Shown in pieces: positions 5,036 through 13,296 of a DNA stretch of 64,000 nucleotides. This stretch comes from Escherichia coli (GTDB taxonomy: Bacteria; Pseudomonadota; Gammaproteobacteria; Enterobacterales; Enterobacteriaceae). A program made the translations under genes and the position numbers. Position 1 is the stretch's first letter; each line of letters starts with the position of its first letter. The notes under the pieces are model-generated. The model did no database searches. It saw only the letters and a program-made list of their open reading frames with translations, and was not told where the DNA came from. Location of the stretch: the NCBI RefSeq assembly GCF_024502345.1, contig NZ_JALDNN010000001.1; one strand, written 5' to 3'.

Positions 5036-5070
5036 CAGTCGCTACTGACATGCCCTGTCAGTAGCGACTG
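5036..5070. promoter_or_regulatory. perfect 15-bp inverted repeat (CAGTCGCTACTGACA-TGCCC-TGTCAGTAGCGACTG), candidate operator of the downstream WYL regulator
   Basis: Palindrome read directly; about 35 bp upstream of ATG 5105, no T-tract after it so not a typical terminator. Confidence 0.5.
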
Positions 5071-5104
5071 GTAATCTCAAGGAAAAATTACAAGGAGAAC
5101 GCGC

Positions 5105-5983
5105 ATGAGCGGGCATGAGGTAATGGTACAAAGAATAACCGCTATTATTGCAGAACTTTACCAGTACGGTTTTGTATCACGTAAGAAGATGATGGACGAA
5201 TTCAACATCAGTGAGCGTACTTTGTATCGTGATCTTAATCGTCTGGGCGACAGAATCGTCCCCGATGGTGATGGTATTTACAGGCTGGCTCCCGCTTACG
5301 CTAAACCTCAGGCTCTAAAAGAACAACAAAATCTCATCAATGCCCTAGGGATGGCAGAGTTATTCCCTGTAAAAAAAATCTTCTCCCAGCCTGACATGAC
5401 TTCACTGATCATCAGATCGCTGCCCGGAGATCCAGAAGCGAAACGCGTACTTGAGAATAACTATAGTGTGTTCGATAAAGCGATTCGTGAAAATAGCCTT
5501 TGTGAATTTCATTATAAAGGGAAACATCGGACCGTCGCGCCTTATAAGCTTATTAACATAAAGAGCGTCTGGTATCTCGGTGCGGTAGAGAATGAAAAGG
5601 TTAAAGGATTCCAGCTCACCAAAATTCATTGGCTGAAATTTAAATCAGAGCACTTCACACCACAACCCCATATCACACAATACTTTGCTGAAGAAGATGA
5701 TGTCTGGTTTTCTTTGGATAAGCAGATTGTACTCCTTAAAATTTCAGCCGACGTAAGCCATTTTTTTAAACGTCGAAATGTTCTGCCTGCCCAAAAGTTA
5801 ATTCGTCAGGAACCTAATGGCGACTTGATCGTGCAAACAAAAATGGCACACGAAAACCAGCTATTTCCATTATTACGTTATTGGTTACCAAATCTCACTA
5901 TTATTTCTCCGGTTAGCCTACAACAACGTTTTTATCAGAAGCTCAACCAGCAGATAATAGAAATGAAAAACCCATTGCAGTGA
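5105..5983 (+). CDS. HTH-WYL-type transcriptional regulator (BrxR/CapW-like architecture), 292 aa
   Basis: N-terminal HTH (FNISERTLYRDLNRL), central WYL-like region, about 290 aa; GGAG ribosome-binding site upstream. Confidence 0.65.
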   Translation: MSGHEVMVQRITAIIAELYQYGFVSRKKMMDEFNISERTLYRDLNRLGDRIVPDGDGIYRLAPAYAKPQALKEQQNLINALGMAELFPVKKIFSQPDMTSLIIRSLPGDPEAKRVLENNYSVFDKAIRENSLCEFHYKGKHRTVAPYKLINIKSVWYLGAVENEKVKGFQLTKIHWLKFKSEHFTPQPHITQYFAEEDDVWFSLDKQIVLLKISADVSHFFKRRNVLPAQKLIRQEPNGDLIVQTKMAHENQLFPLLRYWLPNLTIISPVSLQQRFYQKLNQQIIEMKNPLQ

Positions 5984-10737: not shown

Positions 10738-10773
10738 CACTCGAATAAAAATTACAGCAAGGATAAAACCACA

Positions 10774-13296
10774 ATGCTACAGATAATTGGTGCGTTAATT
10801 TTACTGGTAATCGGTTTTGTTATTATAAAAGCGTTGTTTAAGGCATCTCTCAATATTCTAGGTGTGATATTAGGATTGGGTGCATTGATTGTTGCAGGCC
10901 CACCTTTATTGGCGGGCTATATTGTAGAGCGCGTAACCTATGCGCTTCACTCACGTTGGCTGCTGGGTGTACCTCTTGCCATAGCAGGAATGGTGATTAG
11001 CTTTATGTGGGGACTTGATGGTAAACATATTGCCTACGAAGCTTATTCATTTGATTCAATGAAGTTTATTTTAACCGCTGCATTTGCCAGTGGCCTGCTT
11101 GCAGTACCTGTACAAACCAAGGCTATTCTACAAAACGGGCTTATACCAGCCGATATCAATGCCAAACTTAAAGAGTATTATTGCTGTTTTTATACATCTT
11201 ACTTTTTGATGGCCTGCTCTGCGGCTACACCGTTTATAGCCTGGCAATATAATATCTCATCTTCACTGATGTGGTGGACAGGATTGCTATACTGGATAGC
11301 AGCCTTACTGACACAGTTCTATGCGGCAAACCAAATTCAGGAACTCAAGAAGTTAACTAATGCCATCAATACAGGGTTAAATGAGCAAAAAGCGATCAAT
11401 AACCAACTTTGGCTGACGGAACTAAAAGAAGGAAGTAACCTCTCAGCAGAATTCGTAGAGACTATCTATCTTAAGTTGGTCTCACAGCATATTTTTCAGG
11501 GCGATACTCGAGAGCAGGATCTGGCTGGTGAAAACTGGCTTTTAAATGATGCCTGGTATGAAAGAAAGATGGCTGAATTTAATGAGCAGTTAAACAGTAA
11601 AATTGTACACTCATCAGATGAGCTAAGAAGCCTTTTTGGTAATAGGCTGAATTTACCCTCTGCTGCGAATGATGATCTCCTGAACCGTTATCTTGATGGT
11701 GGGAACTATTATTCTTTTTCGGATGGTCGAAAATTTGTCTCGTTTCACTATGTCGACGAGCTTTGTACCTGCACTTCATGCGGTTTGAGCGAGATTAAAA
11801 ACGCAAAACACCAGGACGGTTGTGGGAGCCAGGAATGGTATTGCTCTGATATTTGCCGGGAAACGGAAAAACTCTGCATTGAAATTCACAAGCGACCACA
11901 GGCTGAATTTATTTCCAGTGCAGCAACAAACGGTCTGATTCTCATGACGCTCCCGGAGGCCTGGAATACTAACGAAAAAATGTTTGCAGTGGGAGGACAA
12001 GGACATGGTTTTGCAGCCGAACGGGGAAATCATCTTACTGACAAAATCCAACTAAAAGATGCACATATTCTCGGTGATGATAATGCGAAAAATGGTGCAG
12101 ACAGGCTGGTTAACGGTTCAGAGATTCAGACCAAATACTGTGCAACCGCTGCACGTAGCGTCGGTGCTGGTTTTGACGGACAAAACGGTAATTATCGCTA
12201 TTATGACAGTAACGGAACCCCAATGCAGTTAGAGGTTCCGAAAGACCAGTATTCGAAAGCGCTTGAAACGATGGAGAACAAAATTCGCGATGGCAAAGTC
12301 CCCGGCGTTACCGATCCTGCAGAAGCCACAAAACTTGTACGTCAGGGACACCTGACTTATAGCCAGGCACAAAACATTACTAAGTTTGGCACGTTCGAAT
12401 CTATCACTTACGACATTGCGGAAGGATCTATCATCAGCCTCGCAGCTGGAGGTATCAGCTTCGGTCTGACAGCTTCTATTTTCTACCTCAATACCGGCGA
12501 TCGTAAGGCTGCGTTGCAAACGGCAGCAATACAGGCAGGTAAAACATTTACCCGCACACTGACAGTTTATGTGACGGTACAGCAATTACACCGTATCAGT
12601 GCCGTTCAGGGGTTACTTAAAAATATTGATTTTGCCGCTGCCAGCCCGACAGTTCGTAATGCGCTTCAACAGGGAGTCGGAGCTAACAATCTCAACTCCC
12701 TTAACAAGATGATGCGTGGCACACTGGTTACCTCTTTCGCACTGGTCGCCGTGACCACTGGTCCGGATATGATCAAAATGGTGCGAGGTCGTATTTCTGG
12801 GGCACAGTTTATAAAAAATCTGGCAGTTACTTCATCTGGTGTGGCTGGGGGTGCAATTGGTTCTATTGCTGGCGGAATGATGCTTAGTCCATTAGGTCCT
12901 TTCGGTGCTTTAGCAGGACGCGCAGCTGGTGGCTTGTTAGGCGGTATGATTGCCACAGCGATTTCCAAAAAAATAGCGGGTGCACTGGTTGAAGACGACC
13001 GAGTAAAAGTGCTGGCTCTCATCCAGGAACAGGTTACATGGCTTGCAACAAGTTTCATGCTTACAGCACACGAACTTGAAAACCTGAACGCGAATCTGGC
13101 AACAGTAATTGACCAAAAAACCCTGGAGGTTATCTTCGCCGCAAAAGAGCAAGACCGAGCAACGGCCAATATGCTGATTAAACCACTTGTAGTAAGTGTG
13201 GTTAAGCAACGACCGGTCCTGAGCTATGAACAATCGCAAATCTGCGAAATGGTCGATCAGCTTGATACATCGGTTTCATTATCTGCTGTTGCATAA
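10774..13296 (+). CDS. gene C: hypothetical 840-aa polytopic membrane protein with a Cys cluster and C-terminal Gly-zipper region
   Basis: About six predicted TM helices in residues 1-190; Cys cluster CTCTSCGLSEIKNAKHQDGCGSQEWYCSDIC; C-terminal GGAIGSIAGGMMLSPLGPFGALAGRAAGGLLGGMIATAIS; RBS AAGGA upstream. Confidence 0.65.
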   Translation: MLQIIGALILLVIGFVIIKALFKASLNILGVILGLGALIVAGPPLLAGYIVERVTYALHSRWLLGVPLAIAGMVISFMWGLDGKHIAYEAYSFDSMKFILTAAFASGLLAVPVQTKAILQNGLIPADINAKLKEYYCCFYTSYFLMACSAATPFIAWQYNISSSLMWWTGLLYWIAALLTQFYAANQIQELKKLTNAINTGLNEQKAINNQLWLTELKEGSNLSAEFVETIYLKLVSQHIFQGDTREQDLAGENWLLNDAWYERKMAEFNEQLNSKIVHSSDELRSLFGNRLNLPSAANDDLLNRYLDGGNYYSFSDGRKFVSFHYVDELCTCTSCGLSEIKNAKHQDGCGSQEWYCSDICRETEKLCIEIHKRPQAEFISSAATNGLILMTLPEAWNTNEKMFAVGGQGHGFAAERGNHLTDKIQLKDAHILGDDNAKNGADRLVNGSEIQTKYCATAARSVGAGFDGQNGNYRYYDSNGTPMQLEVPKDQYSKALETMENKIRDGKVPGVTDPAEATKLVRQGHLTYSQAQNITKFGTFESITYDIAEGSIISLAAGGISFGLTASIFYLNTGDRKAALQTAAIQAGKTFTRTLTVYVTVQQLHRISAVQGLLKNIDFAAASPTVRNALQQGVGANNLNSLNKMMRGTLVTSFALVAVTTGPDMIKMVRGRISGAQFIKNLAVTSSGVAGGAIGSIAGGMMLSPLGPFGALAGRAAGGLLGGMIATAISKKIAGALVEDDRVKVLALIQEQVTWLATSFMLTAHELENLNANLATVIDQKTLEVIFAAKEQDRATANMLIKPLVVSVVKQRPVLSYEQSQICEMVDQLDTSVSLSAVA

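Follow-up and report, generated by a model that had tools for sequence, protein, structure and literature searches.

A PDC-M09 candidate defence operon headed by a WYL-domain regulator and split by two insertion sequences in Escherichia coli

Results

Organization of the locus

The locus described here lies in a 64,000-nucleotide stretch of an Escherichia coli genome (contig NZ_JALDNN010000001.1; the whole stretch is referred to below as the window) and consists of a gene for a WYL-domain regulator followed by three genes, A, B and C, that encode Gly/Ala-rich predicted membrane proteins. Genes A and B correspond to the catalogued phage-defence candidate PDC-M09, and gene C is a member of the YeeR family. 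A putative operator at positions 5035–5071, a perfect inverted repeat of the form CCAGTCGCTACTGACA-N5-TGTCAGTAGCGACTGG, precedes the regulator gene (5105–5983, plus strand), whose 292-residue product was assigned by Pfam and PADLOC to a winged helix-turn-helix (wHTH), WYL and WCX architecture of the BrxR/CapW type and is annotated in RefSeq as a WYL domain-containing protein. Gene A begins at 6018 on the same strand, 34 nt past the regulator stop codon and behind an AGGAG sequence; an earlier sequence-only reading of this DNA had correctly noted the close adjacency, giving 35 bp for the spacing.

Gene A is present in three pieces on the plus strand. Alignment to the intact locus of E. coli PSJ-29 delimits fragment 1, codons 1–15 (6018–6064), fragment 2 (7122–7487), in which 7122–7130 is a duplicated target sequence, and fragment 3 (8851–9292), which includes the stop codon. 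The first interruption is an insertion sequence (IS), IS903 of the IS5 family (1057 bp, 6065–7121, plus strand), defined by its junctions and terminal inverted repeats, with matching records annotated as IS903B. The second is an IS110-family element (1363 bp, 7488–8850, minus strand; transposase 7745–8809), which sits in the Gly/Ala-rich segment of the gene. Gene B (9292–10737, plus strand, 481 residues) overlaps the stop codon of gene A as TAATG, and gene C (10774–13296, plus strand, 840 residues) follows after a gap of 36 nt. Long runs of the form [GAS]xxx[GAS] occur in A, B and C, as expected from the proposal that all three proteins share GxxxG-type segments. Apart from small corrections, every sequence feature described in that reading is present, and its picture of Gly-zipper membrane proteins encoded behind a WYL regulator in a defence island is supported. 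An Rfam scan of window positions 4000–14500 returned zero matches.

Disruption of gene A by insertion sequences

IS903 is flanked by a 9-bp target duplication, TCTCAAAAG, at 6056–6064 and 7122–7130, and the boundary of the IS110-family element is ambiguous by 1 nt. Deletion in silico of 6065–7130 and 7488–8850 yielded a 281-residue protein identical to WP_047738096.1 from the intact locus of PSJ-29 (L001), in which the operon occupies NZ_AP027639.1 3601334–3607305. The reconstruction that the sequence-only reading had proposed therefore restores an open reading frame (ORF), although its product is shorter than the roughly 300 residues anticipated, and PSJ-29 has an uninterrupted A-B-C copy beside a WYL regulator, of the kind that it had suggested looking for. 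Within the IS110-family element, a 257-nt non-coding stretch lies downstream of the transposase (7488–7744), compared with only about 41 nt upstream; this stretch matched no Rfam family.

The two insertions cut the operon's first gene into three fragments, in line with the original claim that they inactivate it. With gene A split by IS903 and the IS110-family element, and with probable polar effects of these elements on B and C, the module in this strain is, as judged from its sequence, a non-functional, dead copy. The pair is not intact in the window, and the locus is a disrupted member of PDC-M09. The island around it is peppered with IS elements: relative to the intact PSJ-29 island, five insertions have accumulated within 27 kb. 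Besides the two in gene A, the comparison identified an IS5 in an AlpA-like helix-turn-helix (HTH) gene (2432–3626), a second IS903 in DSR1 (17334–18390) and an IS3-like two-ORF element in the integrase (25268–26523). The IS903 copies at 6065–7121 and 17334–18390 are inverted with respect to each other. Between them lie the remainder of gene A, genes B and C, a remnant of arsC and the 5' portion of DSR1, an arrangement that resembles a Tn903-type composite. Since each copy has its own 9-bp target duplication, the two arrived independently.

Genes A and B match PDC-M09

Reconstructed A is matched by the PADLOC PDC-M09A model PDLC04407 with an E-value of 2.4e-120 (residues 1–280 against model positions 1–280 of 282), and B by the PDC-M09B model PDLC04409 with an E-value of 1.7e-213. 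PDC-M09 was listed by Payne et al. (bioRxiv 10.1101/2024.01.29.577857) as a two-gene candidate, FAM_02775>>FAM_02807, with 380 RefSeq instances. It was nominated by "guilt-by-embedding", some copies being located inside BREX, DISARM or type I restriction-modification (RM) loci, and PDC systems as a group are positional phage-defence candidates (10.1101/2024.01.29.577857). The A-B pair is thus already catalogued, and the view that A and B are undescribed has to be given up. Pfam and NCBIfam searches with A, B and C gave no significant family, and profiles of A, B and the YeeR_C core (see below) found nothing below an E-value of 0.2 among PDB sequences; neither A nor B is matched by a solved structure. 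What the present analysis adds to the catalogue entry is the breadth of A-B pairing, the conservation of the operator, a core shared by B and YeeR, the likeness of A to a dynamin paddle, and the defence genes that flank the pair.

Distribution and the conserved unit

Searching one-genome-per-species collections with a profile of B gave 80 loci, which come from Proteobacteria, Cyanobacteria, Firmicutes, Bacteroidales, Gemmatimonadota, Acidobacteria and Chloroflexi. In 78 of the 80, the gene directly ahead of B, on its strand and in many cases overlapping it, encodes an A homologue; the other two are L026, which is at a contig edge, and L051. A YeeR-type gene trails A-B in only four of the 80, all in Enterobacterales, and two of these copies, in Serratia and Yersinia, are decayed. 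A WYL-WCX regulator precedes A-B in 5 of 70 loci, and WYL-A-B loci that lack C are found as well in Citrobacter braakii, Pantoea and a Lachnospira. Set against the rarity of C and of the regulator, the near-constant pairing of A with B identifies A-B as the core unit; a three-gene operon is not obligate. The regulator and C have been added in particular lineages, and C is best regarded as a paralogous module in its own right; an obligate third-subunit role for C was considered and rejected on the 4/80 count. The locus is rare in E. coli: among 5,426 complete genomes the full operon was found in three, and A-B-C without the regulator in two more.

Other genes accompany the pair in particular lineages. 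In five of the 70 loci, all alpha-proteobacterial (L024, 1677–3863; L025, L031, L033 and L036), a 728-residue protein with Xre-type HTH, Dynamin_N and Leo-like regions is encoded directly upstream of A-B. In L067, L070, L083, L089 and L094, from Gemmatimonadota and some gamma-proteobacteria, a protein of about 130 residues begins 0–5 nt past B, four of the five with a zinc-ribbon, which suggests another lineage-specific third gene. YeeR_C-type proteins form 1,202 clusters at 50% identity, have varied N-termini that include Sel1/TPR repeats, and also occur alone. B was found in one of 50,697 phage records and at four loci in 2.9 million viral contigs; nearly missing from phages, it is not a phage gene.

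Gene A

The AlphaFold2 (AF2) model of A has helices at 4–56, 62–94, 187–246 and 256–275 arranged around a hydrophobic insert of 90 residues rich in Gly, Ala, Ser and Thr. The insert itself is effectively unmodelled, with a predicted local distance difference test (pLDDT) score below 50. It is nevertheless the best conserved part of the protein: across 75 proteins from many phyla, segment 97–187 is 77% identical as against 38% for the flanks. A-type proteins form more than 7,600 clusters at 90% identity.

Several weak similarities of A were recorded. The PADLOC LeoBC model of the Eleos system matches with an E-value of 2.8e-5, and the tape-measure family phrog_1533 with 6.8e-6 over residues 92–281. 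XaxA (NF033928) gives an E-value of 1e-4 with 21.6 bits against a cut-off of 125, and MakA 9.3 bits against a cut-off of 320. The Gly/Ala segment also aligns with the Gly/Ala paddle that forms the C-terminus of the dynamin-like protein encoded upstream of A-B, as described above (hhalign probability 59%, E-value 9e-5), and this likeness to an upstream neighbour is the most telling of the four weak signals. The four are independent, and each points toward a helical bundle with a hydrophobic element that inserts into the membrane. Jointly they support membrane insertion by A, and none of them amounts to family membership; they do not decide among pore formation, channel blocking and membrane remodelling. 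For alpha-pore-forming toxins of the ClyA/XaxA/MakA type, the hidden Markov model scores of A fall under the curated cut-offs, and no structural match to the ClyA-family fold was found. Alignment of A (192–272) with B (65–139) by hhalign scored 36–39 as compared with at most 25 in reversed or shuffled controls, a result that is suggestive only and on which paralogy of A and B is not claimed, and A showed no hhalign match to the YeeR_C core.

Genes B and C

B has a cytoplasmic alpha/beta core at about residues 55–245, a Gly-rich membrane region at about 246–400, and C-terminal helices. In the AF2 model residues 20–245 have a pLDDT of about 90, and the Gly-rich membrane region is poorly modelled. 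The core topology is alpha-beta-beta-beta-alpha-beta, formed by helix 63–86, strands 97–98, 110–112 and 115–119, helix 125–138 and strand 148–151. Ten residues (K66, H67, G68, E69, E72, R104, D109, Q118, K120 and P152) are at least 97% conserved in 78 proteins. Those at E69/E72, D109 and Q118-x-K120 may recall a PD-(D/E)xK pattern, though with Gln in place of the middle acidic residue. YeeR_C proteins invariantly carry a B-like pattern, GHGFAAE…D…QTKY…EVPKD, and the YeeR_C core aligns with B with an hhalign probability of 74% (E-value 3e-5), while the alignment of B with full-length C is weak (probability 22%). The cytoplasmic core of B, with its invariant H/E…D…QxK residues, thus recurs in YeeR.

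The sequence-only reading did not recognize C as belonging to any known family, but BLASTP places it in the YeeR family, with 63% identity and 78% positives to K-12 YeeR over 509 residues (E-value 0.0). PF27347 (YeeR_C) is recorded on the C homologues P0243, P0303, P0241 and P0343; the Pfam search of C itself was silent, presumably reflecting an older release. The six predicted transmembrane (TM) helices and the Cys cluster ascribed to the 840-residue protein are present, as six hydrophobic helices within approximately residues 2–184 and seven cysteines (C331, C333, C336, C350, C357, C361 and C368), and further Gly-rich hydrophobic segments occupy 547–572 and 684–739. C is thus composed of a 6-TM N-terminal domain, a Cys-rich cluster resembling a Zn finger, and a YeeR_C module at about 400–820 that is distantly related to B. 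K-12 yeeR (L010, 8780–10312) looks like a C-terminally truncated copy, because its 510-residue product ends inside the conserved YeeR_C module.

The regulator and its putative operator

The domains recognized by Pfam in the regulator are HTH_DeoR/HTH_11 (10–47), WYL (123–174, E-value 9e-6) and WCX (209–279, E-value 8e-5), and PADLOC WYL models match it with an E-value of 6e-20. Its description as a BrxR/CapW-like HTH-WYL protein holds for the domain architecture and fails for detectable sequence homology: phmmer against all PDB chains gave nothing below an E-value of 0.4, and hence no detectable similarity to the solved BrxR or CapW chains.

The palindrome that had been noted ahead of the regulator gene is indeed perfect. 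Its 16-nt arms (5035–5050 and 5056–5071) are 100% complementary, are separated by a 5-nt spacer, and end 33 nt before the regulator ATG. The core, CTGACA-N5-TGTCAG (5045–5061), is kept ahead of the WYL gene, at positions −59 to −70, in six WYL-A-B loci of enterobacteria (L015, L016, L017, L019, L011 and L096), and the outer bases of the arms vary symmetrically among these loci, whose regulators have diverged. From this pattern of conservation the repeat is considered to be a phylogenetic footprint. No second exact site occurs anywhere in the window. From locus to locus the spacing of the regulator gene and gene A varies between an overlap of 17 nt (−17) and a gap of 34 nt, and the two genes are therefore very probably co-transcribed.

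The R-BOX of BrxR is an 11-bp inverted repeat with a 5-bp spacer located between the promoter and brxR (PMC9122601). Repression of defence genes is known for CapW, and the CapW-type repressor senses single-stranded DNA (ssDNA) (PMC11662680). Because of the analogy with BrxR and CapW, ssDNA sensing by the latter included, the regulator most likely represses the entire operon, its own gene included.

Genomic context

The operon lies in a defence-rich mobile island, as the sequence-only reading had deduced from a tRNA, a DSR-like sirtuin and repeated IS hits. DSR1 (14053–18994, split by IS903) and the Olokun pair OloB and OloA (19966–23956) separate it from the integrase and tRNA-Thr (26981–27056), and with the five IS insertions these features account for the context described. 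In the intact PSJ-29 island the operon is located between a CP4-type backbone and DSR1 plus Olokun, next to the integrase and tRNA-Thr, and PADLOC identified DSR1 with an E-value of 9e-86 and the Olokun pair with 5e-58 and 3e-77. An arsC remnant past gene C carries, at window positions 13648–13654, a 240-bp internal deletion relative to PSJ-29, the sequence of L001 18227–18466 being missing here. At the far end of the window, 56000–64000 has a G+C content of 59–68%, compared with about 35–57% elsewhere, is shared only in part with the chromosomes of other E. coli and looks like a separate foreign island; for 40000–64000 the best other E. coli genome covers 71% and is annotated with YfjI and IS21 genes.

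Elsewhere A-B is found beside diverse defence systems. It neighbours Gabija and Abi_2 in the variable region between traG and traD of a Vibrio conjugative element, BREX and an SNF2/PLD system in Klebsiella, Shedu in a P4-like Pantoea element, and type I RM in Photobacterium; another locus adjoins CRISPR-Cas, and in E. coli ET826 a type I Zorya lies directly upstream of A-B-C. A YeeR_C-only protein is embedded in a BREX and DarTG locus. When only the largest flanking ORF was considered in 30 diverse loci, nine matched known defence proteins with E-values below 1e-30 (MkoA, DpdE/ZorD, ZorA, Avs2, a type IV restriction endonuclease, LmuB, Cas3, mad3 and a GajB-like protein), a descriptive tally. 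With the PDC-M09 match and neighbours that include RM, BREX, Shedu, Gabija, CRISPR-Cas, Zorya, Avs, Mokosh and Lamassu, the suggestion of a phage-defence module was a reasonable one; only the accompanying idea that it is undescribed falls away.

Discussion

The interpretation proposed here, held with not quite even confidence, is that the locus encodes a PDC-M09 defence module which is repressed by a WYL protein, acts on the membrane and, in this strain, is inactive. The locus would be a mobile-island copy of PDC-M09, the A-B pair having come in Enterobacterales under the control of a BrxR/CapW-type repressor. A regulator dimer bound to CTGACA-N5-TGTCAG would hold the regulator-A-B(-C) transcript at a low level until an infection or DNA-damage signal, for example ssDNA as for CapW, lifted repression. 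A is predicted to be a cytoplasmic four-helix coiled coil with an extremely conserved 90-residue Gly/Ala hairpin, and B a cytoplasmic alpha/beta core bearing the H/E…D…QxK residues followed by a Gly-zipper membrane domain. Produced in a fixed ratio from overlapping genes, the two may assemble in the inner membrane, where a phage cue sensed by the B core would rearrange the Gly-zippers, so that the membrane is permeabilized or deformed and infection is aborted. C, which combines 6-TM, Zn-finger and B-like parts in one chain, is probably self-sufficient and may act likewise on its own.

Several results weigh against this interpretation. The literature on PDC-M09, the RefSeq accessions, YeeR and Gly-zipper defence systems yielded no characterisation, and no paper naming PDC-M09 or the accessions was found. 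The defence-neighbour counts were obtained without a matched background control, and one full-length YeeR homologue lies between sugar phosphotransferase system (PTS) genes and nif genes, in surroundings that are neither mobile nor defence-related. The similarity of A to XaxA, LeoBC and tape-measure proteins is far under family thresholds and may be compositional, and AF2 confidence is below 50 in every hydrophobic segment. The promoter scan, like the terminator scan, performed no better than on shuffled sequence. Finally, in E. coli ET826 (L104, 4748–10975) the WYL regulator is deleted beside an IS3 element while A, B and C are intact and identical, so either unrepressed expression is tolerated or the promoter has been lost as well.

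The weak tape-measure similarities of A may be read as the mark of an entry block. A would then mimic the Gly-rich membrane-inserting segment of a tape-measure or ejection protein and, with B, occupy or plug the inner-membrane injection route, giving superinfection exclusion in which phage DNA is kept out and the cell survives. The top matches of A in the phage library are indeed tape-measure proteins (phrog_1533 and phrog_1686), a tail-associated lysin and an internal virion protein, and C weakly matches a tape-measure family; the predicted placement in the inner membrane, with cytoplasmic domains and no secretion signal, would suit such a role, as would carriage on islands and integrative and conjugative elements rather than lytic phages. 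However, the similarity is weak and confined to low-complexity Gly/Ala and coiled-coil segments, the enzyme-like invariant residues of B would be left unexplained, and WYL repression would be more in keeping with an effector that is costly or toxic than with a blocker made constitutively. An entry block is considered improbable.

The dynamin association points in a different direction, that of membrane maintenance. A GTPase-less stalk-plus-paddle A, with B, would seal or reshape damaged inner membrane, delaying phage-induced lysis or countering membrane-attacking toxins without killing the cell. The LeoBC match of A (E-value 2.8e-5), the five alpha-proteobacterial dynamins upstream of A-B with their paddle alignment (59%, 9e-5), and a LeoBC-like protein about 5 kb upstream in L035 speak for such a function, to which only a small chance is given: A, B and C contain no GTPase domain recognized by Pfam, only 5 of 70 A-B loci have a dynamin neighbour, and the mechanism of Eleos itself is not established.

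There is likewise a slim prospect that the genes are not antiviral at all and constitute mobile cargo that shares hotspots with defence genes, for instance an addiction module or membrane toxin, an ion-channel or stress system, or a factor for conjugation-related exclusion. PDC systems were nominated by position only, the Vibrio copies occupy the traG–traD variable region of a conjugative element, one YeeR homologue resides in a non-mobile metabolic neighbourhood, the truncated K-12 yeeR is without known phenotype, and the inactivation of A here and the decay of C in Serratia and Yersinia are what would be seen for dispensable cargo. Yet association with many defence systems recurs across phyla, the WYL link arose in both Enterobacterales and Firmicutes, and neither an antitoxin-like partner nor a signal peptide nor a link to a secretion system was seen.

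Both PDC-M09 and YeeR have a wide distribution, B being found in at least seven phyla, and yet are uncharacterised, even though yeeR is a named gene of K-12. The locus of this strain is a dead copy on an IS-peppered island; the analysis nonetheless supplies an intact E. coli donor locus, the minimal A-B unit, a likely operator, a set of invariant residues and the dynamin link. If defence were confirmed, the proteins would form a new class of immune effectors that act on the membrane. A broader reading, doubtful but by no means negligible, is that A, B and YeeR define a large, phylum-spanning superfamily of inner-membrane immune effectors in which a new H/E…D…QxK cytoplasmic domain is combined with an ultra-conserved Gly/Ala hairpin related to the Leo paddle, neither part having a characterised relative. 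On a phage cue the pair would open or deform the membrane or block the tape-measure channel. If true, bacterial immunity would gain a new mechanism, and the K-12 orphan yeeR its first function.

Comparison with known systems

Two known groups of membrane-acting proteins bear a resemblance to A. The two-component ClyA family (XaxA/YaxA, MakA) resembles the A-B pair in having a long bundle of helices, one end of which bears a hydrophobic element that inserts into membranes. With Eleos (LeoA/LeoBC), A has in common a predicted helical stalk, a Gly/Ala-rich hydrophobic paddle and the weak LeoBC match. A, B and C differ from Eleos in containing neither Dynamin_N nor any other Pfam domain, the GTPase being present only as the separate upstream protein of the five alpha-proteobacterial loci.

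K-12 YeeR (b2001), an inner membrane protein of the CP4-44 prophage, corresponds to the first 509 residues of C, a stretch that takes in the 6-TM domain and the Cys cluster and reaches into the beginning of the GHGFAAE…DR…QTKY…EVPKD core. In contrast to YeeR, which stops at residue 510, C has a complete C-terminal membrane/Gly-zipper module. The neighbours differ as well: yeeR follows flu (Ag43) in K-12, whereas gene C follows PDC-M09 in this strain.

The regulator shares with BrxR and CapW the HTH, WYL and WCX domains in the same three-domain order, and its gene likewise heads a defence-type operon. As for BrxR, a putative operator with R-BOX geometry, defined by the 5-bp spacer, lies between the promoter region and the start of the regulator gene itself. 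The half-site CTGACA is peculiar to this regulator, and the genes that it would control encode membrane proteins rather than BREX or CBASS.

The closest correspondence is to PDC-M09 itself. A and B match the two PADLOC models nearly end to end and are adjacent on one strand, as in the candidate definition. That definition has two genes, whereas here a WYL regulator and a conserved operator precede the pair, a YeeR paralogue trails it, and A is split.

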